Position numbers and translations under genes: made by a program. Below the pieces are notes generated by a model. That model was not told the origin of the DNA. It ran no database searches and worked only from the letters and a program-made list of their open reading frames with translations. A DNA stretch of 64,000 bases. Source: an uncultured bacterium (GTDB taxonomy: Bacteria > Babelota > Babeliae > Babelales > Vermiphilaceae). The stretch spans positions 96,001-160,000 of the forward strand of contig OY969561.1 of the NCBI GenBank assembly GCA_963701085.1. The letters are read 5' to 3'. Below, piece after piece: positions 712 through 63,245 of the stretch (its first letter is position 1; each line of letters starts with the position of its first letter).

Positions 712-2079
712 ATGCATGATGGATATTTAAAAGTTGAACAATCTCCAGCACTCAAAGGTGAAGTCAGACTTACTGGAGCAAAGAATGCAGTTTTAGTTAC
801 CATTGCATCATTGATTTTAACAACGGGTAAATCATTATTGTACAATGTTCCTATTTCAGCTGATGTTTTTGAGATGATAGAGTTACTGCGCCATTTTGGT
901 GCAGTTATTTTTTTTGATGAAGAAAAGCATCAATTATTTGTGGATACAACATTACTGCATTCATGGAGCGTGAGTAGCGCGATGATGAAAAAAACGCGCA
1001 CGTCAATTTTAGTCATGGGGCCACTTTTGGCGCGTTTTGGTAAAGTACGTATTGGTGGACTTCCTGGTGGTGATGCTATTGGCAAACGTCCTATTGATTA
1101 TCATTTGAAAAATTTTGCAAAGATGGGTGTTGTTATTCATCACGAAGGTGATTATCTGTGCGCTGATGTTGAAAAGTTAGTAGCTGCCCGAATAGTGTTG
1201 GAATATCCGAGTGTGGGGGCAACAGAAAATATCATTATGGCAGCAACACGTGCCCAAGGGGCGACGAAAATTATAAATGCCGCGTGTGAACCCGAAGTTT
1301 TCAATTTGATTGCATGCCTGACAAAAATGGGGGCAAAAATAATTATTGAAGCTCCTGCCACTATTACCATTGAAGGTGTTGATATTTTGAACCCCATTGA
1401 ACACACCATTATGTTTGATCGTCTTGAAGCGGGATCATTGCTGATTGCTGCTGCTGCAACGGGGGGAGAAATTTATATTCCCGATGCATCGGCTGATGTA
1501 TTAGATGTATTTTTGCTCAAGCTTGAAGAAATGGGACATGCAATTACAATTGGTCCAAATAATAAGGGGATTTATCTTAAATCCACTCAGACACCGCATG
1601 CGGTGTCTTTTAAAACTGGACCATATCCAGGGTTTCCGACTGATTTGCAACCTCCCATGATGGCATTGCAATGCTTTGCATCAGGAACGAGTGTTATTGA
1701 AGAGACAGTATTTGAAAATCGTTTTCATCATGCACATGAGCTTATCAAAATGGGTGCATCAATTAAAATTGAACATAATAAAGTAATAGTCACCGGTGTT
1801 GAAAAATTATATGGTGCGCATGTTGTTGCAGCTGATATTCGCGCATCAACGGCGTTGGTTGTTGCTGGGTTGGTTGCGCATGGCACAACAATAGTTTCTG
1901 GTCTTCATCACTGGAAGCGTGGTTATGAAGCGTTAGAAAAAAAACTCCAGCATCTTGGCGCTAAAGTTGCGGTTCATGAAGGTGAAGATATGAGCGCTTT
2001 AATCCTTCAACAAGTTCCCGACTTCGCCAAGGCTTCGACGGGCACGCAGGATGAGCGCGGAAAGCAAACAGATTTATAA
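712..2079 (+). CDS. murA: UDP-N-acetylglucosamine 1-carboxyvinyltransferase, Asp115 type; C-terminal tail is repeat-derived
   Basis: GAKNA, LPGGDAIGKRPID, YPSVGATEN, PYPGFPTDLQ and DIRA motifs; GGAG precedes ATG 712. Confidence 0.95.
   Translation: MHDGYLKVEQSPALKGEVRLTGAKNAVLVTIASLILTTGKSLLYNVPISADVFEMIELLRHFGAVIFFDEEKHQLFVDTTLLHSWSVSSAMMKKTRTSILVMGPLLARFGKVRIGGLPGGDAIGKRPIDYHLKNFAKMGVVIHHEGDYLCADVEKLVAARIVLEYPSVGATENIIMAATRAQGATKIINAACEPEVFNLIACLTKMGAKIIIEAPATITIEGVDILNPIEHTIMFDRLEAGSLLIAAAATGGEIYIPDASADVLDVFLLKLEEMGHAITIGPNNKGIYLKSTQTPHAVSFKTGPYPGFPTDLQPPMMALQCFASGTSVIEETVFENRFHHAHELIKMGASIKIEHNKVIVTGVEKLYGAHVVAADIRASTALVVAGLVAHGTTIVSGLHHWKRGYEALEKKLQHLGAKVAVHEGEDMSALILQQVPDFAKASTGTQDERGKQTDL
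1992..2060 (+). repeat. Type B palindromic half-element with a 30-bp type A element (2017-2046) nested inside, in frame in the murA tail
   Basis: ATCCTTCAACAAGTT[CCCGACTTCGCCAAGGCTTCGACGGGCACG]CAGGATGAGCGCGG; compare the uninterrupted arm at 47827. Confidence 0.9.
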
Positions 2080-2095
2080 AGCCTAATATATGTTT

Positions 2096-2947
2096 TTAAA
2101 AATTACCCGCTAATTCAGTAATTTCAGTCGTAATTTTTGCTTGACGTATTTTGTTGTATTCTAACTTGGTGGTGTTCAACAAACTATTTGCGTTGCGCGT
2201 TGAATTATCCATGGAGATAAAGCGAGCGGCATGTTCAGAAAGCAGTGATTGGAAAATGAGGTGCTGAAATTGAGCCTCGATATACTGCACCGCGAGCGTG
2301 TTTAAGATCTCGCTTGGCGCTTCATCCCAGATATATCCTTCTGTTGGAGGTATGGTTGCTGCAGATATTGTTGCCGGATTGAATGGAATAAGATGGGTTA
2401 CGGTTGCCTTTTGGGTAAAAAAATTTTTAAAAACATTGCTGATGATAGTGACTGATGTATAGGCAGGTGTTGCCAGCATAACAAGATCAGTCAATTCTTG
2501 AGCGATTGTTAAAAAATTACGGGCAGTGAGCACGGGAAAAGAACAGATTAATCTATCAGGATAGTTGTTGATTAAATAATCAATTGGTTTTTTCCCGATA
2601 GCGCTAAAATGATAATGGGCTGATGGGTTTTGTTTTAAATATTCTTGTAAAAATTTTGAGAGCTGTGTATTAAAACCGCCACATAAACCTTTTTGTGATC
2701 CAATAACAACAATGAGAGGGTTACTGTTTTCACCGGTTGGCATAAGCCGCTCATGTGACCATGATGGAGTTGCTAGCTGTACCTTGGCAAGTAATGTTTT
2801 GAGCGCATTCAGGTATTCGCTGAGTGGCTCTTGTTTTATTTTAAGCCGTGAGTGAGCTGACATAGAAATAATACGCATCACATCAGTGACTTTTTTTATT
2901 GTTTCAATGGTTTGAATGCGATTGCGCATTTGAATGAGTTTGGACAT
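2096..2947 (-). CDS. atpG: F1 ATP synthase subunit gamma (stand-alone)
   Basis: RIQTIETIKKVT, KGLCGGFN, SEHAARFISMDNSTRNA, YNKIRQAKITTEITE. Confidence 0.93.
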   Translation of the reverse strand: MSKLIQMRNRIQTIETIKKVTDVMRIISMSAHSRLKIKQEPLSEYLNALKTLLAKVQLATPSWSHERLMPTGENSNPLIVVIGSQKGLCGGFNTQLSKFLQEYLKQNPSAHYHFSAIGKKPIDYLINNYPDRLICSFPVLTARNFLTIAQELTDLVMLATPAYTSVTIISNVFKNFFTQKATVTHLIPFNPATISAATIPPTEGYIWDEAPSEILNTLAVQYIEAQFQHLIFQSLLSEHAARFISMDNSTRNANSLLNTTKLEYNKIRQAKITTEITELAGNF

Positions 2948-3115
2948 GTTACCCCATGGCTGCTTGTGATAAAGCGATTGTATTAAACTTACTGTACCTG
3001 TACTTTAAGCATTTTTCAATGGTAATTATTTTGGCTTTATTGAAACAATGTTGTGTTAATTGATATACTTGCGATGTAGGGTAATAGGGTAGAAAAGTCT
3101 TAATTACGGATAAGT

Positions 3116-3706
3116 ATGATTATTGTTGTGGATGCGTACAACCTTTTACGTTCCGTGCCGCCGTATAAAAAGACCATTACGGACAAAGAGCGGGTGCAAT
3201 TTATTGCGCAGCTGGGTGCGTATGGCCGTCGCAAGGGTCACAAAATGATCATTGTTTTTGATGGTGGTCCTCATGAGTGGCCATTTAAAGAAAACATGAA
3301 AGCAATGACCATTGTCTATTCTGGCATCCATGATAGCGCAGATGATTATATTAAAGAGTATGTGGAAGCTCATCGTGCAAAGGATCTTTTACTTGTATCA
3401 TCTGATGCTGAATTGAATCGCTGGGCAGCGCGGCACAATATTCCCTCCATTGATTCATCAGGCTTTCATCATTTGTTGCATCAAGAGTTGTTGGCAAAGC
3501 AACCGATTGCTGAAAAAATTTCTGAAGTTACAAAATTGCATCGTGATAATGATGCAATAGATATTGACGCTCTCATGACGGAGGCGAGTAAAAGTGTACC
3601 AATAAAGAGCGAAGATTTAGCTCCGGTGAATAAAAGTCGTGATGCAAAAAAGGCTCAGGTTAGTAAAGGTGAGCGTGAATTATTAAAAAAGTTAAACAAA
3701 TTATAG
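3116..3706 (+). CDS. NYN-domain (YacP/Rae1-like) ribonuclease
   Basis: VDAYNL, IVFDG, SADDYI, VSSD motifs. Confidence 0.8.
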   Translation: MIIVVDAYNLLRSVPPYKKTITDKERVQFIAQLGAYGRRKGHKMIIVFDGGPHEWPFKENMKAMTIVYSGIHDSADDYIKEYVEAHRAKDLLLVSSDAELNRWAARHNIPSIDSSGFHHLLHQELLAKQPIAEKISEVTKLHRDNDAIDIDALMTEASKSVPIKSEDLAPVNKSRDAKKAQVSKGERELLKKLNKL

Positions 3707-3716
3707 AGCTATTCAT

Positions 3717-4193
3717 ATGAAGAACCATAACAAAGAGATTGTTTATTCATTAGATGAGCATGATAAGGTTATTCAAGAATTGAAAAATGCAATGGCAAGG
3801 TGTCAGGTCTTTGCCTTGAGCGGTCCTCTTGGTGCGGGAAAAACAACGACCATTAAAGCATTGCTACGTAGTTGCGGGGTGACTGGTACTATTACTAGTC
3901 CAACATTTACGTATGTTAATGAGTACGAAAACAGTCAAGGTGAGCATTTTTATCATTTTGATTTATATCGGATAGGTAGTGTGCAAGAGTTTCAGGCGCA
4001 GGGATTTGATGAATATTTGTATCAACCTGCCTTTCGTAGTTCGCAGAACGAAGTAGGGCCAAATAGTTGGGCATTTATCGAGTGGCCGGAGGTTATTGAG
4101 CCGCTTTTAACGCACAATGTCTGCTTTGTTTCATTTGATTATCACGATGACCCTGATAAACGGGTAGTTATCATAAAAGAGAGTGAATTTTAA
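3717..4193 (+). CDS. tsaE: tRNA t6A biosynthesis ATPase TsaE with an 11-aa repeat-derived insertion
   Basis: GPLGAGKTT, TSPTFT, HFDLYR, IEWPE. Confidence 0.95.
   Translation: MKNHNKEIVYSLDEHDKVIQELKNAMARCQVFALSGPLGAGKTTTIKALLRSCGVTGTITSPTFTYVNEYENSQGEHFYHFDLYRIGSVQEFQAQGFDEYLYQPAFRSSQNEVGPNSWAFIEWPEVIEPLLTHNVCFVSFDYHDDPDKRVVIIKESEF
4026..4058 (-). repeat. Type A element, 33 bp, in frame in tsaE
   Basis: Minus strand CCCTACTTCGTTCTGCGAACTACGAAAGGCAGG; encodes PAFRSSQNEVG. Confidence 0.8.
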
Positions 4194-4293
4194 AGATTTT
4201 TATCAAATAATGTGTTTTTCATCAAAATTAAGTTGAAATACATTGAGAAAAACAATATTATAGTTGAACAAGCTTGTAGATGTGCTTGGGTGC

Positions 4294-4378
4294 GGCGAGG
4301 TTCCCGAGCGGCCAAAGGGGGTGGACTGTAAATCCATCGGCTATGCCTTCGCTGGTTCGAATCCAGCCCTCGCCACCA
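4294..4378 (+). tRNA. tRNA-Tyr(GTA)
   Basis: Cloverleaf, anticodon loop CTGTAAA, long variable arm, GGTTCGAATCC, CCA. Confidence 0.97.
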
Positions 4379-4405
4379 GACTACGCTAAAGCTTCGTCTG
4401 GCAGG
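4376..4405 (+). repeat. Type A element starting at the tRNA-Tyr CCA
   Basis: CCAGAC-TAC-GCT-AA-AGC-TTC-GTCTGG-CAGG. Confidence 0.88.
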
Positions 4406-4481
4406 CCATCTTTTTAAAGGTTGGTTAGAATTATCAAAAAAACTTGGTAATTTAAAAAGATTAAGAAAACAATTGAAATGT

Positions 4482-4557
4482 GCGGGAATAGCTCAATTGG
4501 CAGAGCGACAGCCTTCCAAGCTGTAGGTTGCGAGTTCGACCCTCGTTTCCCGCTCCA
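4482..4557 (+). tRNA. tRNA-Gly(TCC)
   Basis: GCGGGAA acceptor stem, loop CTTCCAA, CCA. Confidence 0.97.
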
Positions 4558-4570
4558 GAAAAGTTATAAG

Positions 4571-4646
4571 GCCGGCGTAGCTCAGTTGGTAGAGCAGCTG
4601 ATTTGTAATCAGCAGGTCACTGGTTCGAATCCTGTCGCCGGCTCCA
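4571..4646 (+). tRNA. tRNA-Thr(TGT)
   Basis: GCCGGCG acceptor stem, loop TTTGTAA, CCA. Confidence 0.97.
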
Positions 4647-4674
4647 TACTTCGCACAAGGCTCCGTATGGCAGG
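4644..4674 (+). repeat. Type A element starting at the tRNA-Thr CCA
   Basis: CCATACTTCGCACAAGGCTCCGTATGGCAGG. Confidence 0.88.
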
Positions 4675-4733
4675 CCATTTTTTTCAAAGGTTTGACATTA
4701 AGACTTTTTGAAAAGATTGATAGCAGAAGCGAA

Positions 4734-4764
4734 GTATGCCCTTCGAAGCTTTAGCGTAGTAGGG
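4734..4764 (-). repeat. Type A element, inverted relative to the tRNA-adjacent copies
   Basis: Minus strand CCCTACTACGCTAAAGCTTCGAAGGGCATAC. Confidence 0.85.
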
Positions 4765-4869
4765 CTATCCTTATCTTTCTGATTTCTAATACACAATAGG
4801 TGTTCAAAAAGTTTGTCTTTTTCTGTTTTTTTAATTAATCTATAATAAACCGTAAGGATTACGGTTCAT

Positions 4870-4944
4870 GCCCACGTAGCTCAGAGGCAGAGCGCTTCCT
4901 TGGTAAGGAAGAGGCCACCGGTTCAATCCCGGTCGCGGGCTCCA
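4870..4944 (+). tRNA. tRNA-Thr(GGT)
   Basis: Loop TTGGTAA, GGTTCAATCCC, CCA; A5-C68 mismatch in acceptor stem. Confidence 0.94.
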
Positions 4945-4989
4945 GATAGAATCAGTTGAAATCAAGGTCTTATAAGTGTCTTTATAATT

Positions 4990-5148
4990 ATGGCAAAAAA
5001 TAGAAAAACTACTCATTTGGTTTGCGAAATATGCAAAGAACGTAACTATACTCAGGTTGTTTCAAAAAAAAGAACTATCGGTTCTTTAAAATTGAGTAAG
5101 TATTGTCCACGCTGTCGCAAGCACAATGATCATAAAGAAACAAAATAG
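4990..5148 (+). CDS. rpmG: 50S ribosomal protein L33, Zn-ribbon type, 52 aa (absent from ORF track)
   Basis: Manual translation [52 protein letters not shown]. Confidence 0.95.
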
Positions 5149-5157
5149 GCCCTTTGT

Positions 5158-5234
5158 AGGTCAGTAGCTCAATTTGGTAGAGCAGCAGACTCCAAATCTG
5201 CCGGTTGGGGGTTCGAGTCCCTCCTGGCCTGCCA
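5158..5234 (+). tRNA. tRNA-Trp(CCA)
   Basis: Loop CTCCAAA, GGTTCGAGTCC, CCA; canonical position between rpmG and secE. Confidence 0.97.
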
Positions 5235-5252
5235 TTAGAAAGAAGAGAGATA

Positions 5253-5453
5253 ATGATAAAAGATGTAACGCAGTTTGTTAAAGACGTGCAACTTGAGCTT
5301 TCAAAAGTTACTTGGCCTAAGTTTGATGAGTTTGTAGGATCAACGATAGTTGTCTTACTACTCATGTCTTTTTTTGCAGTTTATTTAGGTCTCGTTGATA
5401 AAGGGCTTACTGAGCTCTGGCGATTTGTAGTTAGATTGTATGGTGGTTACTAG
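5253..5453 (+). CDS. secE: Preprotein translocase subunit SecE
   Basis: ELSKVTWP plus one TM helix; start set at ATG 5253, after the tRNA. Confidence 0.93.
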   Translation: MIKDVTQFVKDVQLELSKVTWPKFDEFVGSTIVVLLLMSFFAVYLGLVDKGLTELWRFVVRLYGGY

Positions 5454-5474
5454 TTTTGACAGGACAAAGATCAT

Positions 5475-5993
5475 ATGAAGCGCTGGTATGTTGTACAAGT
5501 ATATGCAGGTTATGAGCAGGCAGCTAAGCTAGACATTGAGAAACGAATACAAGCAGAAGGAATGCAAGATTACTTTGGTGAAATTCTTGTGCCATCTGCT
5601 AAATCAAAACCAATGTTTGCAACAGATGACAGTGCTGATCAGCAACTTTTTCCTGGTTACATCTTAGCCGAAATAGAAATGACTCCCGAGTCACTTCGTG
5701 TTGTAACCGCAAGCATTCGTGTCTTGAGATTTTTGGGGGGCAAAAATCCTGAGCCAATATCACAAAAAGAGATCGATCGTATTATTTCCCAAGTTAAAGG
5801 GGAAGTTGCGGTTGAAACTACGCGAGAAGAGTATTCACTTGGCAGTGAGGTAGATATAGTTGAGGGTCCGTTTGCTGGATTTGTCGGTATTATTGATAGC
5901 GTAGATTATAATAACGAAAAATTAACAGTTATGGTTAGTATTTTTGGCAGAATGACCCCGGTTGAACTTGGCTTTCATCAAATTAAGCGATAA
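5475..5993 (+). CDS. nusG: Transcription elongation factor NusG
   Basis: WYVVQVYAGYE, LFPGYIL, GPFAGF, IFGRMTPVEL. Confidence 0.97.
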   Translation: MKRWYVVQVYAGYEQAAKLDIEKRIQAEGMQDYFGEILVPSAKSKPMFATDDSADQQLFPGYILAEIEMTPESLRVVTASIRVLRFLGGKNPEPISQKEIDRIISQVKGEVAVETTREEYSLGSEVDIVEGPFAGFVGIIDSVDYNNEKLTVMVSIFGRMTPVELGFHQIKR

Positions 5994-6013
5994 TCAGTGA
6001 GGTAATTGTCTCT

Positions 6014-6439
6014 ATGGCAAAAATAGTTAAAGCAAAAATTAAGCTTCAGATTCAAGGTGCGAGCGCGACTCCGGCTCCTCCTGTGGGATCGTCACTTGGT
6101 CAACACCAAGTCAATATTATGGAGTTCTGTAAGGCATTTAATGCTCAAACATCTGGTCGCAAAGGCGAAACTGTGCCGGTAGAAATTACTGTATACACTG
6201 ATCGTACATTTGAGTTCAGGGTAAAAACTTCGCCAACTACCGAGCTTATTAAAAAGCGAATTAGTCTTACAAAAGGTTCGCCTCGTCCTCATGAAATTAA
6301 AGTTGGAAAAATTTCATGGAAGGATATTGAAGAAATCGCAAAAATTAAAATGCCAGATTTGACTGCAGTTGATATGGATCAGGCAAAAAAAATTGTCGCT
6401 GGCAGTGCGCGAAGTATTGGAATTGACGTTGTTGATTGA
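6014..6439 (+). CDS. rplK: 50S ribosomal protein L11
   Basis: ATPAPPVGSSLGQ, NIMEFCKAFN. Confidence 0.97.
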   Translation: MAKIVKAKIKLQIQGASATPAPPVGSSLGQHQVNIMEFCKAFNAQTSGRKGETVPVEITVYTDRTFEFRVKTSPTTELIKKRISLTKGSPRPHEIKVGKISWKDIEEIAKIKMPDLTAVDMDQAKKIVAGSARSIGIDVVD

Positions 6440-6453
6440 GCTAGGAAAATATA

Positions 6454-7152
6454 ATGGCTAAGCATGGAAAAAAATATCACGCAGCGGTATCGAAGAAGCC
6501 TAGTAATGATCTTGGTGTAGATGTAGCATTTCAACAAGTTAAAGATCTTTCTTTTGCCAAATTTGATGAGTCCATTGATGTGGCTATCAACTTGGGTATA
6601 GATCCAGCTAAGGGTGAGCAAACAGTTCGAGGTTCTGTTGTTTTGCCTCATAGCAAAGGAAAAGAGAAAGTCATTATTGTTTTTGCAAAAGGTGAATTTG
6701 CTGATGCAGCAAAAAAAGCGGGAGCTGATTTTGTGGGCATGGAAGACCTTATTGAAAAAATACAAGGTGGCTGGCTTGATTTTGATTATGCAGTAGCAAC
6801 ACCAGATGTTATGGGTGCGGTTGGTGTGCTTGCAAGAGTTTTGGGTCCTCGTGGATTGTTGCCAAACAAAAAAGTAGGCACAGTTACGTTCGATGTAGAA
6901 GCAATTGTTACTGATTTAAAAAAAGGCCGTGCTTTCTTCAGAAATGATAAGCAGGGTATTGTTCATTTTTCAATAGGTAAAGTTTCATTTGATGTTAAAA
7001 AGCTTCATGATAATTTAGATGCTTTAGTTAAGGCAGTTGTGGGATCAAAACCGGCGACCGCTAAAGGCAAGTATCTGAAAAAAATGACCGTGTCCTCAAC
7101 AATGGGCATTGGTATTGCGATTAACTCTGACGAATTTGTGCGTTCCTTATAG
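6454..7152 (+). CDS. rplA: 50S ribosomal protein L1
   Basis: AKFDESID, LGPRGLLPN, SSTMG. Confidence 0.97.
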   Translation: MAKHGKKYHAAVSKKPSNDLGVDVAFQQVKDLSFAKFDESIDVAINLGIDPAKGEQTVRGSVVLPHSKGKEKVIIVFAKGEFADAAKKAGADFVGMEDLIEKIQGGWLDFDYAVATPDVMGAVGVLARVLGPRGLLPNKKVGTVTFDVEAIVTDLKKGRAFFRNDKQGIVHFSIGKVSFDVKKLHDNLDALVKAVVGSKPATAKGKYLKKMTVSSTMGIGIAINSDEFVRSL

Positions 7153-7166
7153 GTAAAGAGGTTTCA

Positions 7167-7694
7167 ATGAATCGACAACAAAAAGAATCGGTTGTTGAGT
7201 TATTTCATAAAGATTTTTTGGCAAATAAGGGCACCTTTTTTGTTAATTATTCCGGATTAACTGTTGGTCAAATGCAACAATTAAGAAGGCAATTGCGTGA
7301 AAAAGGCGGCGCGCTTAAAATTGCAAAGATGCGGCTTGTTAAACGAGCACTTGCAAGTGTTAAGGGTGCTGATGGGCTTCTTTCTCATTGTAAAAATCAG
7401 TTAGGTGTTGTTTTTGCGTATGACTCAGCAGAAGTATCTGGTATAGCAAAAGCTCTTAATGATTTTTCAAAAAAGAATGAATCACTTGGCCTTGTTGTTG
7501 GTTGCGTGGATGCACAGCTTTTGGATAAGACAGCAATCACTCGTATTGCATCTCTTCCATCAAAAGAAGTACTGCTTGCTCAGCTATGTGGTACGCTGAA
7601 TGCTCCATTGACCTCGCTTGTGTTTGGACTTAACTCTATGATTGTGAAGCTATTGGTTGCTTTAAAAGAAGTCGAAAAGCAAAAGCAAGCGTAG
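7167..7694 (+). CDS. rplJ: 50S ribosomal protein L10
   Basis: YSGLTV..LRRQL, LPSKEVLLAQL; synteny. Confidence 0.95.
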   Translation: MNRQQKESVVELFHKDFLANKGTFFVNYSGLTVGQMQQLRRQLREKGGALKIAKMRLVKRALASVKGADGLLSHCKNQLGVVFAYDSAEVSGIAKALNDFSKKNESLGLVVGCVDAQLLDKTAITRIASLPSKEVLLAQLCGTLNAPLTSLVFGLNSMIVKLLVALKEVEKQKQA

Positions 7695-7763
7695 TGATAA
7701 GTTTGTCTCATATAATAGATGATAGTAGTTGTTTATAGTACTTTTTAATGTTTAGGGATTGCA

Positions 7764-8150: not shown

Positions 8151-8172
8151 CGTTGTTATGCGGGCTTTTTTT
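8141..8172 (+). terminator. Intrinsic terminator/attenuator between rplL and rpoB
   Basis: GCTTGCATAAC-GTT-GTTATGCGGGC followed by T7. Confidence 0.7.
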
Positions 8173-8175
8173 GTT

Positions 8176-8246
8176 CCCCATCTTCAGTTTTCCGACTTCG
8201 TTAAAACTTTGTCGGACAGGCATTTCGATGGGGACCCCAATTGGAG
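8176..8246 (+). repeat. Type F element with a nested 30-bp type A element (8191-8220)
   Basis: CCCCATCTTCAGTTT[TCCGACTTCGTTAAAACTTTGTCGGACAGG]CATTTCGATGGGGACCCC; empty copy at 28500-28540. Confidence 0.88.
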
Positions 8247-8386
8247 TCATTTAATTTTTCATAAAAGTTACCCAACGGTAACAAGGTGAAAATTAAGTTA
8301 AAAGATTGGGGTAAAATGATTTTTTGGTGTAGTGGGGGATGGAATTTGATTGGCCACATGTTTGGCGTTAGTAAGGAGTGGTCTAA

Positions 8387-54964: not shown

Positions 54965-56835
54965 TATTTTTCCCTATATGTTTTGCGAGTTCAACAGCAA
55001 CTTCTTTAATCATAGATTGCCAATCACCTGGCGTAGGTTGTTTGAATAGGCGAGTGATGTTTGGATACCATGGAGAATCATTGCGATCTATCATCCAGCG
55101 CCAATCAGCAGGGTTCGGGAGCATAATCCATGTTGGTGTGCCAAGCCCACTTGCAAGATGGCTGATTGATGTATCAACCGTGATAATAAGATCGAGATTT
55201 TTTATTACCGCAGCAGTATCCATAAAACGACCATTGCTCTGATCAAAATCACCATCAAACGTGATAATGCGCATGCCTTCTGGTAAATCCTTAAGTTGAT
55301 CGGTGCCGGTTGTTTTTTGCAGGCTGTAAACAGTTACGCCGGGAACGTTGCAAATAGGTGCAAACTCTTTTGGATGTACTGATTTTTGGGCAACGGTTGC
55401 GCGTAATAATGGTGTTGCATAGTTATCATTTCCTTGCCAACAGATGCCAATTTTAAAGTTTTTATCCGCGGATAATTTTTGTTTCCAATCAGCTACTAAT
55501 TTTTCATCAGCATAAAGGTATGGAATTTCACAGGGAACAGTATCAAGGCGTGTTTTCAGAACATACGGTAATGATAACAATGGTGAATGAACATCAAAGT
55601 GTGGGGGGGTGTCATCGAGTGAAATCACTTGATCGATATGTTTGCAACGTTTCATGAGGGTGACGAGTGGTTTTTGTACTGCAGCAATAACAATGCCATT
55701 TTTTTCTTTGATCAATTTCGCGTAACGAATAAATTGAAACGTATCGCCAAGCCCTTGTTCTGCGTGAATTAAAATTGTTTTGCCTTGTAAATCTGATCCA
55801 TCCCAGCGTGGTTCAGAGTAGCTGCGCAATGATCCTTGAGAAGGGCGGTCTGTAGCGCCATTCATATCCATGCCATCCGCGTTCAAAATCGCCGATTACA
55901 AGATACGCAAGGCCGCGACTAAAGAGTGCCTCTGCATGGTTGGGATTAAGCTCGAGTACTTTATTATAGTAAGGGAGTGCTTGATCCAAGTAACCAAATT
56001 TTTTGTAAGTGAATGCAATGTTGTATAAAATTGATGGATTGTTTGGTAGTTGACGGTTAAGATCTTGGTATATTGCGAGTGATTCATCAAGTCTGTTGAC
56101 GGTGTTATAAACATTAGCAAGTTCAAAGGTTAAGTTGATATGGCCTGGTTCAAGGGTAAGCCCATCAGTAATAATATTAAGTGCTTGATTAAAAAGATGT
56201 TTATCATTGTAAACGCGTGCAAGTAATAGACGCGTGTCAGGGTCATTGGGGTTAAGAATGAGTGCTTGTTTAAATGGTTCAATTGCATCGCCTGCTTGTT
56301 TGACATCCGTCATTACTTTGCCAATTTGAATGTATGCACGATAGTGATCTTTTTTATGCTGAATTGTTTTTTTATACGCATATAACGCCTCAGAATATTT
56401 TTTTGCATAATAGAGTGCTTGACCAAGATTGAAAAATATCTGTGCGCAGGTGGGATTTAATGCAAGTGCTTGTTTGTAAAATGCAATTGCTTCATCATAC
56501 TGTTCTGCGGTAAAAAGGCCATTTGCATGTTTGCTGAGTGCTTCAAAAGATTGGTAGTCGATATATGAGTGTGGTTGTGGTTTTTTGAGATAATTTTCTA
56601 TTGCGGTAAACGTAACTTGTTTGTTTGCATTGCAAAGGGATGTAGTGAGTAGTAGAAGGATTACCCTTCGATACATTCTCCTGTGGAGAACACTCAGGGC
56701 GAGCGGGAAGAGAAATATATTATTCTTAAGGATTGCGGTAAATTCTAGCCCGCTCGTCCTGAGTGCCACCGTAGGTGGTGTATCGAAGGATGGTGCGGAA
56801 GAAAAACGTAGAATAGTTTGTTTAGTTGTATTCAT
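54951..56835 (-). CDS. TPR-repeat plus GT9-like glycosyltransferase with an apparent +1 insertion near 55851
   Basis: Removing one base from TGG CGC TAC A GAC CGC joins GYEWRY to DRPSQGSL..WDGSDLQGK; EQGLGDTFQF. Confidence 0.85.
56663..56791. repeat. Inverted pair of type C elements (56663-56707 plus, 56749-56791 minus) in the 5' coding region
   Basis: Inner hairpins TTCTCC/GGAGAA and CCACC/GGTGG. Confidence 0.88.
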
Positions 56836-56837
56836 AA

Positions 56838-56895
56838 AAAACTCCTTTTTTGTGCGCTTCTATTTCTGCTTTGTTATACACAAAAAAGGAGTTTT
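56838..56895. promoter_or_regulatory. Perfect 17-bp inverted repeat covering the RBS of the TPR-GT gene
   Basis: AAAACTCCTTTTTTGTG-N24-CACAAAAAAGGAGTTTT. Confidence 0.6.
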
Positions 56896-56965
56896 AATCA
56901 ATTTGATTAATAGTCTTTACCCATTTGCCCATTTGTGGTATGATGTGTTATAAGAGGTACCAATT

Positions 56966-57226
56966 ATGAAAAAAGAAACAAAATACGTAAAAATAGATTC
57001 CCGTAATCGTATTACCATACCAAAAAAGCTATCTGAGGGCATGTCTCATCTGTATGAGATATATGAGAAAGATGGGAAGATTATTCTTGAGCCAGTTTAT
57101 GAGGTTCCTAAAGAAGAAAAATGGTTGTTTGATCCTAAAAATAGGGCAATCGTTGATGAACTTAAGGCAGCACTCAAAGAAAAGGCTCACATAAGAATAG
57201 ATTTAAGCCAATTTGAAGAAGAATAA
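56966..57226 (+). CDS. AbrB/MazE-type antitoxin
   Basis: KIDSRNRITIPK, DGKIILEP; GAGG RBS. Confidence 0.8.
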   Translation: MKKETKYVKIDSRNRITIPKKLSEGMSHLYEIYEKDGKIILEPVYEVPKEEKWLFDPKNRAIVDELKAALKEKAHIRIDLSQFEEE

Positions 57227-57229
57227 TTA

Positions 57230-57526
57230 ATGACTTTTATATTGGAATATTCGGACACAGCGGCGAGACATTTTATGAGTCTCAAGGCTGATTCTTCGAA
57301 ACATAGAATTTTCAAGGACGTTGTTAAAGCTTTGCGGTACATGGAAAGTAATTTGCGGCATCCATCTTTAAACACTCATGAATACCATACTCTTAAAGGT
57401 CCTGGCGGTGAAAAGGTATTTGAGTCATATGCCCAACAAAAAACGCCTGGAGCATATCGAATATTTTGGCACTATGGTCCTGGTAAAAATATCATTTCAA
57501 TATTAGCAATTATACCTCATCCTTAA
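57230..57526 (+). CDS. RelE/ParE-superfamily-like toxin
   Basis: LEYSDTA, RHPSLNTH, GAYRIFWHYGP, IIPHP; coupled to the AbrB-like gene. Confidence 0.7.
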   Translation: MTFILEYSDTAARHFMSLKADSSKHRIFKDVVKALRYMESNLRHPSLNTHEYHTLKGPGGEKVFESYAQQKTPGAYRIFWHYGPGKNIISILAIIPHP

Positions 57527-57633
57527 AATTTGATTACAAAACACGATCAAAGAAAAATCAAAACAATTGGCTAAAAAAAAGTGTTGTATAGTACTTGCAA
57601 GTACTATACAACACTTTTTTTAATAAAATCAAT

Positions 57634-58743
57634 TTACAGTTCGCTTGGCGTCCACTTATTAATATATTCAACAAGAGGCGCAATGCTTTTTTTTGTAAGG
57701 GATGAAACAACAACGTGTGGCTCGTATTGTTCAATGGCTCCCGCTAAAAGCGTTGTATCAATTTTGTCGGCCTTGTTAAATACATAGAGTATTGGTGTTT
57801 CAATATTGAGGTCTTCAAGGATGTCGTTAACAACATGGATATGGTTTCGCCAGCCTGTATCGGCAATATCAACAACATGTAATAATAAATCAGCATAATG
57901 TAATTCTGAAAGTGTTGATTTAAATGCGTCAATTAATCGTGGAGGGAGTTGTTGAATAAATCCAACGGTATCAGAAATGGTACCCTTTTTTGTGCCATGA
58001 ATAAACAGTGAGCGTGTTGTTGTATCAAGGGTTGCAAACAGTTTATCTTCCGCCAAAACATTACTGTTGGTCAGTATGTTTAATATGGTTGATTTACCCG
58101 CGTTGGTATATCCAATAAGACAGACATTGGGCTCATTGTTGTTCAAGCGTTGTTTGCGGCGTGTTTCGCGCGCACTGTGCATTTTTGCAAGATGTCTTTT
58201 GATTTGTAAAATACCATCTTCAATATGACGGGTTTCTTTTTCTTTTGCCGTTTCACCAAAGCCGCCACGAACACCAATGGCGCCACATTGTTGGCCAAAA
58301 TGGATACCGCGACCAGAAAGGCGTGATTTTTTATGCTGTAGTTGAGCGATGGCAACTTGGAGCTTACCTTCTGCGGTATGAGCTGATTTTTCGAAAATTT
58401 CTAAAATAAGTTCAGTTCTATCAAAAATGTTACAATCAAATAATTCTCCCAAATTGCCGGCTTGGCGTGAAGAAAGAGGTTCAGATATAATTACCTGCTC
58501 AATTCCGTTTTCATCGCAAAATAACTTAATTTCATCTCGTTTACCCTTGGTTAAAAAATAACCAGGATCAATGGTACGAATTTTTATATTAAGCTCTTCA
58601 GCATCACGGACACCATTGGTGCGTGCTAAGTTACGAAATTCTTCAAAATAGGATTCCGTATTAGCAACATGATTTTGTGGCGATTGTACGCCCAGAAGGA
58701 GGGTTTTTGGGTAGACTACCGTAGAGGTTGCTTGTCTTTTCAT
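57634..58743 (-). CDS. hflX: Ribosome-splitting GTPase HflX
   Basis: DRTELILEIF, GYTNAGKST, LFATLD, DTVGFI, NKAD. Confidence 0.96.
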   Translation of the reverse strand: MKRQATSTVVYPKTLLLGVQSPQNHVANTESYFEEFRNLARTNGVRDAEELNIKIRTIDPGYFLTKGKRDEIKLFCDENGIEQVIISEPLSSRQAGNLGELFDCNIFDRTELILEIFEKSAHTAEGKLQVAIAQLQHKKSRLSGRGIHFGQQCGAIGVRGGFGETAKEKETRHIEDGILQIKRHLAKMHSARETRRKQRLNNNEPNVCLIGYTNAGKSTILNILTNSNVLAEDKLFATLDTTTRSLFIHGTKKGTISDTVGFIQQLPPRLIDAFKSTLSELHYADLLLHVVDIADTGWRNHIHVVNDILEDLNIETPILYVFNKADKIDTTLLAGAIEQYEPHVVVSSLTKKSIAPLVEYINKWTPSEL

Positions 58744-58809
58744 GATTTTTTGCCTTATTTAAAAAAAGTGCTGCGCACTTTTCATCGTATTAAGCTTGTA
58801 TGTGTTTCC

Positions 58810-58954
58810 CGCGCTCGCCCTGACCCTTCGGCAAGCTCAGGAGTAAACACCTGCCTTGAGAACTTGCAGTGCCTGCCGAAGCCTTGGCGAAGGCAGGTTG
58901 AAGGGTTTCTTAGAGCGCTCGAAGAGATCCTTCAACAGGTTCAGGACGAGCGCG
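58810..58954. repeat. Full type B element with nested type D (58824-58848) and an inverted type A-containing insert (58854-58897)
   Basis: CCCTGA[CCCTTCGGCAAGCTCAGGAGTAAAC]ACCTG[..GTGCCTGCCGAAGCCTTGGCGAAGGCAGG]TTGAAGGG. Confidence 0.9.
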
Positions 58955-58981
58955 AAAAGGCAAGAATGATCGGGTTGTCTA

Positions 58982-59727
58982 TATTCTTCTTTGTAATTAT
59001 AGCATAAGTATCAAAAAAATGTAGCGAGGGAACCATGAAAGTGGATTTGTTGATTAGCCAATATAGTTTTTAAGCAATTCTATAATTTTATTATAGTTGA
59101 CTATCGCTAACATAGTTAGGGCTAAGGCAATAATTGAAAATTTCATTGATTGCTGTTTTTGTGATTGTTGTTTCTGTTCCAATTTCTTTAAATATTCTCC
59201 AGGTGTTGCTTCATTTATTGATTGTCGGTAATGTTTCAAAAACTCATGATCTGTTAATTTTTGATTTTTCCAATAAGGTATATTGTCTAGAAGTGGAAGG
59301 AATGATTGATTTTTTTCTATAACGAGCATTTTAATGGCTTCCATATCCTCTATCATTGTACCACTCATTACTCTTATCTGTGTATAGTCAATAAAGTCAG
59401 ATAAAATGTCGTTTCTCATGGTAGGATATCCTTGAGTATTCATTAAGACTTTTGCACGATTTAAGCTACAACTAGTTTGATTTTTGATATATTTTACATA
59501 CTCAGTTATTTCCTTGGCATTCTTGGAATTTATTAGTTCATCAATATACTCATTGGTTGTTTTAAGGGAATCGTTTCTAATGCTCAGGTGCGGATTAAAT
59601 GGCTTGATTTGGTTTTCAGATGCTATAGTGATAAATCCTATATTTATTGTCAATAGAGCGATAAGATAATAATAGTTCATAAAATCCTCATTGTTAATTT
59701 TGATTATTCTTCTTTGTAATTATAGCA
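58982..59727. repeat. Perfect 23-bp direct repeats (58982-59004 and 59705-59727) flanking an ORFan
   Basis: TATTCTTCTTTGTAATTATAGCA twice; contains minus-strand TGCTATAAT. Confidence 0.85.
59054..59680 (-). CDS. Hypothetical protein with signal peptide and C-terminal TM helix
   Basis: Hydrophobic termini; GAGG RBS; very AT-rich. Confidence 0.65.
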   Translation of the reverse strand: MNYYYLIALLTINIGFITIASENQIKPFNPHLSIRNDSLKTTNEYIDELINSKNAKEITEYVKYIKNQTSCSLNRAKVLMNTQGYPTMRNDILSDFIDYTQIRVMSGTMIEDMEAIKMLVIEKNQSFLPLLDNIPYWKNQKLTDHEFLKHYRQSINEATPGEYLKKLEQKQQSQKQQSMKFSIIALALTMLAIVNYNKIIELLKNYIG

Positions 59728-59884
59728 CAGATGTGCTCAATGGTATAGGCGGATATGGTTAGGCTGGGGTTGGATTTTTCATCTTTTTCTTTTTCCAATG
59801 TTTTTTTTAGAAAAAGTCTGATATTTGTGCTAGGATAGACGCATAAAAATAAGCAAATTCTTTTTCCTTAAAAGGGCTTTTGGT

Positions 59885-61177
59885 ATGTTTGATTTTCTTT
59901 CACAAAAATTTTCATCATTGTTTTCTGGTCTTGAAAGTACTAAAAAATTAACAGAACAGAACATTCAAGAAGCGCTTGAGGCGGTGCAAGAGGCGCTGTT
60001 GGAGGCCGATGTTCCGTATGGTGTGGTGCAAACATTCATTGCATCAGTAAAAAAGGATGTTGTTGGGCAGAAAATAGTGGGGGCGTTAAAGCCAGCAGAG
60101 CAGTTAATGACGGTGGTTCAGCGTAAGATTGTTGATTTTCTTGGTGGTGATGATGCAACATCGTCATTTTCATTTCCGTCAACCGTGATGGTTATGGGGC
60201 TGCAAGGTTCAGGAAAAACAACGACCATTGGTAAGTTGGCGTATAAAATTAAAAAAGATGCTGAAAAAAATAATATCACTCAAAAAATTCTTGTTGGTTC
60301 AATAGATTTTTATCGTCCGGCAGCAATAGATCAACTTGAAGTGCTTGCACGTCAGGTTGATGTTTCTTTTTACCGTGCACAAAGCACTGATCCAGTTGTG
60401 GCAGCAAAAGAGATTTTTTCTTTTGGCCACAACAATGGCTACCATGTTATTTTGCTTGATACTGCGGGTCGCTTGCACATTGATAATACCATGCTGCAGG
60501 AGTTGCAAGAAGTTGATGCGCTGCTGCGTCCTGCGTATAAAATGTTAGTTCTTGATGCAATGACAGGGCAAGAGTCGCTGGCGGTGGCAAAAGCCTTTGA
60601 TGATACAATAGGATTTCATGGGGCTGTTTTGACTAAGATGGATAGTGATACACGCGGTGGAGCGGCATTTGCATTCCGTTTTGTGTTAAAAAAGCCGATT
60701 GTTTTTGTTGGTGAAGGTGAAAAAGTTACCGATCTTAATACTTTTTATCCTGATCGTGCGGCAGAGCGTATTCTTGGTATGGGCGATATTCGCACCTTAA
60801 TGGAGCGTGCAGAAGAGAAGATTTCTGCTGCTGAGCAAGAAAGGGCGGAAAAGGCGCTTAATTCAGGAACATTCTCATTGCAAGACTTCGCCAATCAGAT
60901 GGCAATGATGAATAAGTTAGGTTCTCTTTCACAATTATTGAAATATATGCCAGGTTTGGGCGCAAAAATTTCTCCTGAAATGATTCAAAGAGGAGAAGTT
61001 GAATTGGTTAGATTCCGTGCAATTATTTCTTCCATGACATTAAAAGAGCGTCTCAATGCCAATATTCTCAATAATTCAAGAATGGAACGGGTTGCAAAAG
61101 GGGCGGGGGTGGCTGTTCCGGATGTGGCTAAGCTATTGAAACGCTTTGAAGAAGCGAAACAATATGTTAAGCTATAA
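59885..61177 (+). CDS. ffh: Signal recognition particle protein
   Basis: ALLEADV, GLQGSGKTT, DTAGRLHID, RILGMGD, SSMT.KER. Confidence 0.96.
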   Translation: MFDFLSQKFSSLFSGLESTKKLTEQNIQEALEAVQEALLEADVPYGVVQTFIASVKKDVVGQKIVGALKPAEQLMTVVQRKIVDFLGGDDATSSFSFPSTVMVMGLQGSGKTTTIGKLAYKIKKDAEKNNITQKILVGSIDFYRPAAIDQLEVLARQVDVSFYRAQSTDPVVAAKEIFSFGHNNGYHVILLDTAGRLHIDNTMLQELQEVDALLRPAYKMLVLDAMTGQESLAVAKAFDDTIGFHGAVLTKMDSDTRGGAAFAFRFVLKKPIVFVGEGEKVTDLNTFYPDRAAERILGMGDIRTLMERAEEKISAAEQERAEKALNSGTFSLQDFANQMAMMNKLGSLSQLLKYMPGLGAKISPEMIQRGEVELVRFRAIISSMTLKERLNANILNNSRMERVAKGAGVAVPDVAKLLKRFEEAKQYVKL

Positions 61178-61255
61178 AATAAGTTTGGCCTTATTAAAGG
61201 CCTCGTTAATAAGAAGATATGTACATATTTTTCAGTTTTAGTAAGGATACTTTCT

Positions 61256-61573
61256 ATGGCAGTTAAAATTCGTTTGTCCCGTATTGGAACAACAAATCGA
61301 CCTTTCTATCGTGTTATAGCAACTGATGCTCGTAACAAAAGAGATGGTGAGATTCTCGCAAATGTTGGTACTTTTGATCCGATCAATGGTTCTGTAATTC
61401 AATTCCATGAAGATATTTATCAGGCATGGTTGGCTAAGGGTGCAATTGCGACAGATTCAGCAAAAAAAGTTTATCGTTTGTACAAAAAATCTGGTACATC
61501 GACCATAGCTCCCGCTGCAGCTGTAGCAAAAGAATCTGTTCAAGCAGAAAAAACTGCAGAAGAAGCAGTATAA
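61256..61573 (+). CDS. rpsP: 30S ribosomal protein S16
   Basis: MAVKIRLSRIG..PFYRVI..D.R..RDG. Confidence 0.97.
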   Translation: MAVKIRLSRIGTTNRPFYRVIATDARNKRDGEILANVGTFDPINGSVIQFHEDIYQAWLAKGAIATDSAKKVYRLYKKSGTSTIAPAAAVAKESVQAEKTAEEAV

Positions 61574-61582
61574 GGCGATAGC

Positions 61583-61813
61583 ATGATAAAAGAATTGGTC
61601 ACTTTTGTAGTGCAGCAATTGGTTTCGCATCCACAAGACGTTGTCGTGAGTGTTACTGAAAAAGATGATATAAATCTTTTTGAAATCAAAGTATCACCAG
61701 AAGACCGAGGACGTGTTATTGGAAAAGAAGGGCATACAATTAAATCATTGCGTGCTTTGATTGATGTAGCATCACCTTATGGAAAAAAAGTTTCACTTGA
61801 ACTGTCTCGGTAA
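61583..61813 (+). CDS. khpA: KH-domain RNA-binding protein
   Basis: DRGRVIGKEGHTIKSLR; follows rpsP. Confidence 0.9.
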   Translation: MIKELVTFVVQQLVSHPQDVVVSVTEKDDINLFEIKVSPEDRGRVIGKEGHTIKSLRALIDVASPYGKKVSLELSR

Positions 61814-61852
61814 TCCTTCGATACACCCCTACGGGGCACTCAGGATGAGCGC
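61813..61852 (+). repeat. Type C element filling the khpA-trmD gap
   Basis: ATCCTTCGATACA-CCCCTACGGGG-CACTCAGGATGAGCGC. Confidence 0.9.
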
Positions 61853-61860
61853 AAAATATA

Positions 61861-63165
61861 ATGAATATATCAATTCTTACTGTTTGTGATCAGTTATATG
61901 AGCCATTTGTGCATACCAGTTTGGTTGGACGTGCGCAAGAAAAAGGGATTGTACATATCGATGTACAATCGTTTTTTACGTATGTACAGCCAAAATCGCG
62001 CATTGATGCGCCTACTTTTGGTCCCGGAGCAGGGATGCTTATTCGTCCTGATGTTGTTCAAAAGGCAATAGAGGATAAAGAGGCTCGTTATGGTAAGGCA
62101 TTTAAGATTTTCTTTTCGCCCCGTGGTGAAAAAATGGATCAGCGTGTCTTTGAAACTATTGCAGCTCGAGCTCAGGAGTTGGGCCATTTGATGATTATAC
62201 CTGCGCGATATGAAGGAATGGATGCGCGTGTAGAAGACGAATACGCAGACATGATTTTATCCGTGGGTGATTTTGTTATTATGGGTGGCGATGTTCCGGC
62301 AATGTTACTCATTGAAGGCGTGCTACGCTTAATGCCTCAGGTTGTAGGTAAAGAAGAATCAGTGTGCCGTGAATCGTTTAACGGTCCGTTCGTTGATTTT
62401 CCATCATATACTGAGCCTGTTGAGTGGAAGGGTAAGCGAGTTCCTGACGTGCTTCGTTCCGGTAATCATGCAGCTATTGAAAAATGGCGCAGTGAACATT
62501 CGGTACAAAAGACCGTACGGGAGCATTTTTTATGGTTACGCTCTCAGGCACTTACTGATAATGATAAAAAGTTAGCGCGTCAGTATATTCCTTCTCATTA
62601 TGTCGCTCTTATGCACAGCGATGTGCTTGTTGGGCAAGAGAGAAAGCCTGGTTTTACATCGGTGACATCTATTGATATTCATGATATTGCACGGTCATCA
62701 AAGACGTATGGTGTAAAAGAATTTTTTATTGTAACACCATTGCTTGATCAGCAAAAAATTGTTCAAAAGATGCTTGATTTTTGGAAAAAAGGAATTGGGT
62801 TTGAGTACAATAGGTGTCGTTATGATGCCATTCAATTGGTACAGCTTATTGAATCTCTGAATGAAGTTATTAAAAAAATAGAAGAACGTGAAGGTAAAAA
62901 GCCGCTTGTTGTGGCAACATCAGCTCAGCTCGGTGATGCACAGCAGGTTGTTTCTTTTTATGACCAAAAAAAGGTATGGGCAAGTGATAGGCCGGTATTG
63001 ATGATTTTTGGTACAGGCCAGGGGCTTTCGCCATCAATCATTGAGCAATGTGATTATCTTTTATTGCCGATTGATGGGTTTTCTGAGTTTAATCATTTAT
63101 CAGTACGATCAGCCGTTGCGATTATTCTTGATAGGTGGCTTGGGGTTAGCCCACAACGAGCTTGA
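61861..63165 (+). CDS. trmD: tRNA m1G37 methyltransferase fused to a second SPOUT-class methyltransferase domain
   Basis: FGPGAGM, RYEGMDARV, GDFVIMGG, LRSGNH; then DIHDIARS..TYG, FGTGQGL, FNHLSVRSA. Confidence 0.93.
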   Translation: MNISILTVCDQLYEPFVHTSLVGRAQEKGIVHIDVQSFFTYVQPKSRIDAPTFGPGAGMLIRPDVVQKAIEDKEARYGKAFKIFFSPRGEKMDQRVFETIAARAQELGHLMIIPARYEGMDARVEDEYADMILSVGDFVIMGGDVPAMLLIEGVLRLMPQVVGKEESVCRESFNGPFVDFPSYTEPVEWKGKRVPDVLRSGNHAAIEKWRSEHSVQKTVREHFLWLRSQALTDNDKKLARQYIPSHYVALMHSDVLVGQERKPGFTSVTSIDIHDIARSSKTYGVKEFFIVTPLLDQQKIVQKMLDFWKKGIGFEYNRCRYDAIQLVQLIESLNEVIKKIEEREGKKPLVVATSAQLGDAQQVVSFYDQKKVWASDRPVLMIFGTGQGLSPSIIEQCDYLLLPIDGFSEFNHLSVRSAVAIILDRWLGVSPQRA

Positions 63166-63214
63166 GGTAATATCATTTTTGGGTTATATTTAAAAATATT
63201 TATATGAACACGAT

Positions 63215-63245
63215 GTGCCCTTCCGAAACTTTAGTAAAAGTAGGG
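63215..63245 (-). repeat. Degenerate type A element upstream of rplS
   Basis: Minus strand CCCTACTTTTACTAAAGTTTCGGAAGGGCAC. Confidence 0.6.

Follow-up and report, generated by a model that had tools for sequence, protein, structure and literature searches.

Repetitive extragenic palindromes (REPs) are among the commonest bacterial repeats, and to our knowledge a cognate enzyme, the REP-associated tyrosine transposase (RAYT), is known for the GTAG class of REPs only. The Rickettsia palindromic elements (RPEs) were reportedly described by Ogata and colleagues in 2000, and we know of no tRNA-end anchoring or nuclease partner for them. Free-standing GIY-YIG homing endonuclease genes are represented by those for I-TevI and the Seg proteins of phage T4. 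In the sections of Di Nocera et al. (2013, PMC3733652) that concern these repeats, E. coli-type GTAG-3 REPs are given as a tag, a stem, non-complementary di- or trinucleotides, and a GC-flanked loop; CGTC-class REPs appear there without a cognate enzyme; Opitutus terrae is named as the richest in intragenic REPs; and RPEs are summarized as palindromic repeats that lie in frame in housekeeping genes and add a short stop-free peptide. Here we analyze a hairpin repeat, which we call type A, that recurs in a 64,000-nucleotide stretch of DNA (the window; positions 96,001 to 160,000 of contig OY969561.1, assembly GCA_963701085.1) from an uncultured bacterium of the Babelota (family Vermiphilaceae). 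We propose that type A is a REP-like hairpin that spreads selfishly and that its likeliest partner is an 80-aa GIY-YIG nuclease; we put the probability of this reading at roughly 0.55.

Type A is a hairpin of about 30 nt (30 nt is also its typical length). Its 6-bp stem varies freely and leads into a TTC x TTC internal loop and an inner stem of 3 bp; the 3' tail is CAGG or CACG. Read from 5' to 3', it begins with an arm of 6 nt and T(T/A)C; next come an inner hairpin of 7-9 nt of the form G(C/T)N ... N(A/G)C, most commonly GCCAAGGC, GCTAAAGC, GC(A/G)TAAAGC, or GTTAAAAC, a second T(T/A)C, and the 3' arm, again of 6 nt; a tail of CAGG, CACG, or CACT closes it. (On the strand opposite this TTC strand, the tail reads CCTG, CGTG, or AGTG.) We built a covariance model (R1) from 80 copies of this genome and ran it over all 1,198,634 bp (the genome is 92.6% complete). 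This gave 147 matches at E ≤ 1, which represent 145 distinct places, and we took 127 of these as good copies for analysis. The window holds 11 matches plus one nested outer copy. The initial annotation, which was made from the window alone, had cited copies at 4376, 4644, 8191, 16919, and 58897 (minus strand), and all five are present with the outer stems that it described. The inner stems that it listed (GCC/GGC, GCT/AGC, GTT/AAC, and GTTC/GAAC) are all seen as well, the last of them at 4026-4058 (minus); a 3x3 loop resembling TTC and a tail of CAGG or CACG are likewise present; and its span of 2017..63245 runs from the first to the last type A copy of the window.

This layout is close to that of REPs. 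Like them, type A is an imperfect palindrome of 20-40 nt with about 100 copies and an unpaired 4-nt tag at its end; it has a stem, non-complementary trinucleotides, and a short GC-flanked loop; its stems vary by complementary changes; some copies lie in genes; and the repeat has a physical link to the gene of a small nuclease. The layout of a GTAG-REP, which the initial annotation had recognized here, holds for the unpaired tetranucleotide and the imperfect hairpin but not for the tag itself, which is CCTG/CGTG instead of the GTAG or CGTC of REPs. Furthermore, the gene linked to type A encodes a GIY-YIG protein rather than the HUH Y1 transposase of REPs, the hairpin pair precedes the gene instead of enclosing it, tRNA or transfer-messenger RNA (tmRNA) genes provide the module's anchor with their CCA ends, and one sequence core of type A is common to many phyla. 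The REP families of O. terrae (Di Nocera et al. 2013), GTAG-17 to GTAG-20, may overlap with type A.

We rejected chance or base composition as the source of type A. When we scanned for the non-stem parts alone, 94 of 581 matches in the genome had at least 5 of the 6 stem pairs, versus 14 of 357 in the reversed genome, which served as a control. Covariation was assessed in two sets. In the 80 seed copies from this genome (73 distinct rows), 93.4% of cells were paired, a percentage that is biased because the seeds were preselected for at least 5 of 6 pairs; changes on both sides occurred in 8 of 9 pairs, there were 132 double-change cells, which none of 500 shuffles reached, and controls with slid partners were 31-50% paired. 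The second, unbiased set comprised 124 copies from about 120 other genomes (two of the 124 rows are from one unpublished genome, G045), and the exact pattern used to find these specifies only loops, core, tail, and the innermost pair of the stem, so that pairs 1-5 are free. Here 93.9% of cells were paired, both-sided changes occurred in all 5 free pairs, and there were 139 double-change cells with up to 6 pair types per position, again unmatched in 500 shuffles. The claim of the initial annotation that type A conserves structure and not sequence is thus borne out in the bacterium's own genome and in foreign copies.

The pattern of what varies and what does not is informative. The stem covaries because its 6 bp need only pair. 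The constancy of the unpaired bases across phyla, together with the freedom of the stems, calls for a protein that reads the fold. This predicted protein probably makes its contacts with the two strands of the TTC internal loop, the short GC-type inner hairpin, and the CAGG/CACG tail. That a protein recognizes the folded strand had been suggested from the window, and this part of the suggestion fits our data; the enzyme it had in mind was of the HUH type, and the genome has no Y1 match (see below). As isolated single-stranded DNA, the hairpins are weakly stable (-3.4 to -9.2 kcal/mol, with z-scores of 0.07 to -3.1), and in all 5 pairs tested, the strand with the GAA loop was slightly more stable than its partner.

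Type A is widespread and patchy. It is present in 28 of 40 relatives from the Babeliales/Dependentiae, and within one genus the copy number ranges from 0 to 133. The exact core pattern occurs at 122 or more loci in contigs from one genome per species, where we estimate about 17 chance matches; 112 of the 123 matches listed have at least 5 of 6 stem pairs. By database labels, the carriers among the matches listed belong to Verrucomicrobiota, Acidobacteriota, Planctomycetota, Omnitrophota, Patescibacteria, and Dependentiae, as well as Nitrospira, Myxococcota, Bacteroidota, Bacillota, and Proteobacteria. Viral contigs hold another 79 loci with the core pattern (71 of 80 matches with at least 5 of 6 pairs). 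Several genomes have multiple copies: at least 23 in an Opitutus metagenome-assembled genome (MAG), 10 in a Saccharibacteria genome, 7 in an Omnitrophota genome, 3 in a Nitrospira genome, and 81 in an unpublished Vicinamibacterales genome; these numbers are lower bounds because 150 candidates were scored per genome.

Type A has inserted into ordinary genes, in some cases in a lineage-specific way. In this genome, 84 of 145 matches are intergenic although open reading frames (ORFs, which were called mechanically) cover 87% of the genome, and convergent spacers are enriched. The 43 good copies (of 127) that lie within ORFs of at least 150 aa have the TTC strand sense in 34 cases and antisense in 9. 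Pfam domains were found in 16 of 20 host ORFs checked, and these are ordinary housekeeping genes: besides genes for a UvrD-family helicase and an EPSP-synthase-family protein in the window, the hosts include PheT (inside the B3_4 domain), an M3 peptidase, PriA, Ddl, DnaX, ribosomal protein S1, a penicillin-binding protein, CysS, a Mur ligase, PepA, and DprA. The in-frame copies lack stops and usually encode the peptide xxFAKASxxx; since the insert is 30 or 33 nt without a stop codon, the host's reading frame stays open. In the M3 peptidase PepF, a nested pair of 63 nt (33+30) is present here and missing in all 5 relatives. In PheT, this genome (G000) and its relative G005 have separate 30-nt inserts that are 12 nt apart, and the site is empty in the other 4 genomes. 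The insertion in the UvrD-family gene (48165..48194 on the minus strand, in frame as IPSFAEASAGRP, in a linker of gene 47877-50216) has decayed versions at the equivalent place in sister genomes; it is old and shared with them, and therefore unsuitable as an empty-site case. In the EPSP-synthase-family ORF (691-2079), the copy at 2017..2046 (plus strand, CCCGAC/GACGGG, tail CACG) is translated in frame as part of the C-terminal end. RPEs likewise lie in frame in housekeeping genes and encode a short stop-free peptide; judged by description, they differ in that they are 100-150 bp long and confined to Rickettsia, while type A measures 30-33 nt and has carriers in many phyla.

Copies of type A also occupy the loops of a second repeat, type B, and of one another. 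In all 7 cases of type A nested within type A, the inner copy interrupts its host at GCT^TC, on the 3' side of the internal loop. We considered whether the stem could arise by inverted duplication of the target and rejected this, as excision of the full 30 nt, with both arms, restores the host repeat or gene. A fixed target-site duplication was also rejected: the element's first base is repeated past the tail in only 48-62% of copies, and for its second base the figure is about 41%. Instead, the junctions have 0-3 nt of microhomology (CCA at tRNAs, TC at GCT^TC).

Many insertions lie at the end of tRNA genes. All 35 tRNA genes of this genome encode CCA, and by eye, about 22 of them have a type A hairpin immediately 3', with a 5' arm that opens with the tRNA's own CCA and a 3' arm that closes in TGG (14 of these hairpins are matches to the covariance model). 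A second CCA follows the tail, usually with a run of Ts, and the downstream sequence is common to the copies. The tRNA-end copies look like an insertion flanked by a repeated CCA. In the window, the plus-strand copy at 4376..4405 (CCAGAC/GTCTGG) has as its first three bases the CCA end of tRNA-Tyr, and another CCA and a T-run come after it; this site is bare in sister genome G001, and other sisters have differing stems there (CCAGAC, CCATAC, or CCAGTC). A 31-nt copy at 4644..4674 (plus strand, CCATAC/GTATGG) begins at the CCA of tRNA-Thr(UGU), where five sister genomes have the CCA and directly thereafter a T-rich stretch. A third copy, at 16919..16981 (plus strand, CCATAC/GTATGG), begins at the CCA of tRNA-Val and has another type A in its apical loop (16931..16961, plus strand, CCATCC/GGAGGA with a bulged stem). 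At three foreign loci from different lineages, type A again begins at a tRNA gene's CCA. (We discarded a Fisher test of whether stems that start with CCA go with tRNA position, since it is circular by construction.) There is also a variant form in metagenome loci L412, L420, L429, L436, L439, L449, L456, L461, and L464, with the hairpin TCCTGC TTC GC..GC TTC GCAGGA, which starts just past the tRNA's CCA and does not include it.

Our candidate for the partner is a small GIY-YIG nuclease. Besides UvrC, the genome encodes five small GIY-YIG ORFs, four of class 2 and one of class 1. The one intact class-1 gene encodes 80 aa, lies at genome position 843858-844097 (minus strand) beside tRNA-Glu, and has type A on both sides. 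Its product matches Pfam's GIY-YIG family (56.6 bits), and Y5, Y17, R27, H31, N32, and E63 are invariant in 16 sequences; we take these residues to include the GIY-YIG catalytic set. By sequence, its nearest solved structures are the SLX1 structure-specific endonucleases (at the top) and a UPF0213 protein, and NCBIfam has no model for it. With 80 aa, there is room for the catalytic domain only. Like the GIY-YIG homing genes, this would be a selfish gene with a GIY-YIG domain and a fixed site in a conserved region of the host's genes (here, the tRNA or tmRNA end); unlike them, its 80-aa product would have no room for a separate DNA-binding domain, and it is accompanied by hairpin repeats that also spread without the gene.

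Among 41 Babeliales genomes, type A is present in 23 of 24 with the class-1 nuclease and in 6 of 17 without it. The two are also adjacent. In relatives, type A lies within 450 nt upstream of 29 of 40 class-1 loci, with 61 matches in 45 kb versus about 1 per 10 kb genome-wide, and a co-oriented tRNA is upstream of 20 of the 40. We then looked at 80 metagenome loci, out of more than 563 confirmed, that were chosen by the nuclease protein alone. Type A was upstream in 68 of the 80; 107 of 117 matches were upstream and 10 were downstream. A co-oriented tRNA or tmRNA was present in 45 of 80 (downstream in one of these), and at least 20 had a CCA-anchored hairpin. The recurring module opens with tRNA/tmRNA-CCA::A(+); about 60 nt of spacer separate this from A(-), and 5-60 nt further on comes the nuclease gene. 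It is also found in the Opitutus MAG (at tRNA-Leu; the class-1 protein there is 51% identical to this genome's), in a Nitrospira genome (at tRNA-Ser), and at a tmRNA gene of the Babeliales. In the window, the copy at 4644..4674 is the A(+) half of such a module, and 60 nt past it, a copy in the opposite orientation (4735..4764, minus strand) is the A(-) half; no nuclease gene follows, so that the pair is the nuclease-associated module without the gene. The small GIY-YIG nuclease is the only gene that we found to be both co-occurring with and adjacent to type A, which is why we take the hairpin to be one half, the repeat, of a selfish pair resembling a REPtron. A DUF559 nuclease was also considered as the partner and rejected, as it is present in just 2 of 41 relatives, within long proteins, and is unlinked to type A.

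The class-2 GIY-YIG genes are associated with type B, a repeat of about 40 nt (GCGCTCGTCCTGAACTTGTTGAAGGAT..GAGCGC) whose inverted copies bracket four frames of 98-127 aa with these genes. Its core, TCCT TC AAC AA GTT C AGGA, shares the layout of type A, and type B and the class-2 proteins look like a sister repeat/nuclease pair. Type B is found in the window at 28561-28623, 37672-37735, 44697-44783, 47836-47873, 50244-50353, 54775-54868, and 58901-58963, and outside it there are type B/class-2 sites at genome positions 231658, 339216, 1091369, and 1102891. A composite family, ccttcgataca [A-like hairpin] cactcagg(a/g)cgagcgg, occurs at genome positions 200426, 281181, 288136, 300604, and 339616 and at about 10 more; it is a type B repeat with a type-A-like hairpin in its loop, amplified as a whole.

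In the reading that we favor, non-coding type A would spread as selfish DNA, and the nuclease would bind or cut the hairpin and thereby move it. The ancestral unit would be the module at the 3' end of a tRNA or tmRNA gene, with the two inverted hairpins ahead of the nuclease gene, and the solo hairpins would have scattered from it secondarily, landing in the hairpin loops of other repeats, between genes, past tRNA genes, and in frame in protein-coding genes; in-frame landing would be tolerated where the insert is 30 or 33 nt without stop codons. We hold more loosely to a fuller version, and would not back it at even odds: that type A and the 80-aa protein are an undescribed pan-bacterial two-part selfish system, a "REPtron" built on GIY-YIG instead of HUH, in which the unpaired bases would let a minimal structure-specific nuclease recognize the 30-nt hairpin in its folded form, and which would home to tRNA or tmRNA genes at their CCA end and seed solo hairpins across the genome, including in frame in essential proteins, with the outer stem (such as TGG versus CCA) helping in the choice of target.

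Several observations weigh against the nuclease as partner. Six of the 17 nuclease-less genomes carry type A, including G008, which is 96% complete and has 45 copies, and G040 has the nuclease and no type A. The co-occurrence counts are overstated because related genomes are not independent. Small GIY-YIG genes from Saccharibacteria, Omnitrophota, and Vicinamibacterales genomes have no strong type A nearby (one has a weak match, E = 0.004). As the hairpin pair is upstream of the gene and not around it, it could equally be a promoter, a terminator, or a device of the 5' untranslated region (UTR) rather than a substrate. Finally, the junctions, with their short repeats and no fixed duplication, do not reveal the chemistry of insertion.

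The initial annotation, with its GTAG-REP layout and candidate HUH nuclease, points toward a classical REP, moved by a RAYT-type HUH (Y1) tyrosine transposase that acts on the folded single strand. The layout of E. coli-type REPs is similar, as far as the account of them in PMC3733652 goes, and Y1_Tnp is present in 12 of the 41 Babeliales genomes, all of them among the 29 carriers of type A and none among the 12 type-A-free genomes, as well as in all 5 distant carriers checked. Yet a six-frame search of this genome, at its 92.6% completeness, found no match to Y1_Tnp, the TnpB zinc ribbon, RVT_1, rve, or DDE_Tnp_1; G005 lacks Y1_Tnp too, and both genomes have lineage-specific insertions. A repeat cluster at genome position 1.1639-1.1646 Mb contains, by eye, no recognizable ORF of transposase size. 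The Y1 genes of G007 belong to plain 571-bp IS200 elements, with end hairpins unlike type A, and no strong type A match flanks any of 14 Y1 loci that we scanned in relatives and distant genomes (at 4 loci, the only match was 320 nt from an IS200, and at the other 10, the best was weak, E = 0.018). The tag, too, is not GTAG. We consider mobilization by such an enzyme to be improbable. (G007 has three near-identical copies of the IS200-type element, L199, L200, and L201, and the related G010 has 14 Y1_Tnp matches.) The IS200/IS605 elements themselves have small hairpins that are recognized single-stranded, as those of type A would be, and share with it insertion without target duplication, but they need two differing end hairpins and a Y1 transposase, whereas type A is a single hairpin and has no lagging-strand bias: its replication-strand orientations number 64 and 63, which rejects an IS608-like bias.

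A second alternative is that type A is an RNA element that is useful to the host and under selection for RNA structure, as a tRNA 3' trailer or terminator, a stabilizer of mRNA ends, or the 5' UTR of the nuclease, with the dispersed copies being incidental. This would account for the prevalence of the TTC strand in the sense orientation (34 versus 9 in coding regions, as above, and 31 versus 15 between tandem genes), the enrichment in convergent spacers, the CCA and T-run past tRNA-linked copies, and the placement of A(-) 5-60 nt ahead of the start codon of the nuclease. It is at odds with the absence of any copy from sister G001 (95% complete), where the sites at tRNA-Tyr and tRNA-Thr(UGU) are bare, and with copies that lie in frame in enzymes and nested in one another. 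No Rfam family matches type A (the best sub-threshold hit, Ocean-V, scores 19 bits versus a threshold of 75), and when we checked for intrinsic terminators, T-runs were present only at tRNA-linked copies and began 7-9 nt past the stem, beyond CAGG-CCA, rather than directly after it; most copies have no T-run. Furthermore, G-U pairs occur seldom and not in excess of A-C oppositions, the wobbles of the other strand, so the pairing rule does not single out RNA. We judge this explanation to be unlikely, if somewhat less so than the HUH enzyme. Nearly all stem changes go from one Watson-Crick pair to another with few wobble intermediates, as would be expected if no protein were involved: quasi-palindromes would correct themselves at the DNA level by template switching within the hairpin, subfamilies would be copied, and either microhomology-mediated template switching or gene conversion between the flanks of tRNAs would account for the spread. 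Indeed, the recurring mismatched stems are amplified subfamilies (such as CCCTAC/GAAGGG and TCCTCC/GGCGGA), the junctions have repeats of 0-3 nt (CCA or TC), and the tRNA-linked copies share their downstream sequence. But this leaves unexplained why the same unpaired TTC loops, GCCAAGGC core, and CAGG tail are found in many phyla, and why, in 68 of 80 independent loci, the hairpins stand ahead of one nuclease gene in a fixed order, and we give it as little credence as the HUH enzyme.

The window also holds type A copies in other settings. Two of them interrupt type B repeats: that at 2017..2046, at AAGTT^CAGGA, and that at 58867..58897 (minus strand, CCTGCC/GGCAGG, tail CACTG), at TTCAA^CAAGTT. 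A copy at 8191..8220 (plus strand, TCCGAC/GTCGGA with inner stem GTT/AAC) lies between rplL and rpoB and is embedded in a larger repeat (8174-8257, catcttcagttt [A] caggcatttcgatggggacccc) that recurs at genome position 894434 and is found in related form at three other places. At 54851..54880 (plus strand), a variant of the CCGTCC/GGAGGC subfamily with one bulged G is part of a longer composite repeat. Two matches are marginal: a variant with the longer inner hairpin GTTC/GAAC at 4026..4058 (minus strand, E = 0.68, within ORF 3717-4193), and a degenerate copy at 63214..63245 (minus strand, E = 0.6). Elsewhere in the window, the rpoC region has two overlapping ORFs (12705-14258 and 14230-16527, of 517 and 765 aa) past the 1441-aa rpoB, which could reflect a frameshift, a split gene, or an assembly error. 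Many bacteria have tuf upstream of the secE-nusG-rplKAJL-rpoBC cluster; here, there is no tuf between tRNA-Thr(GGU) and tRNA-Trp (4870-5234), upstream of that cluster. There are also two sets of tandem paralogues: three adjacent genes of 319-342 aa on the minus strand (21355-24342), and four small genes with similar, signal-peptide-like N-terminal starts (51085-53425).

In the open-access literature, we found no description of the type A core sequence, of the peptides that it encodes, or of a pairing of GIY-YIG proteins with REPs, and none of the three partly similar systems (REP/RAYT, RPE, and free-standing GIY-YIG) combines the tag, the nuclease partner, and the tRNA anchoring of type A. If the proposed partnership is correct, then a second, unrelated nuclease family would be tied to a hairpin repeat, and the arrangement of a repeat plus a domesticated nuclease would have arisen more than once. 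The enzyme and its substrate, at 80 aa and 30 nt, would be a testable pair. The partnership would also account for the hairpins past tRNA genes in genomes with type A, and for the odd peptide insertions (xxFAKASxxx and similar) in proteins from many phyla, including those with tiny genomes from the candidate phyla radiation and the Dependentiae.

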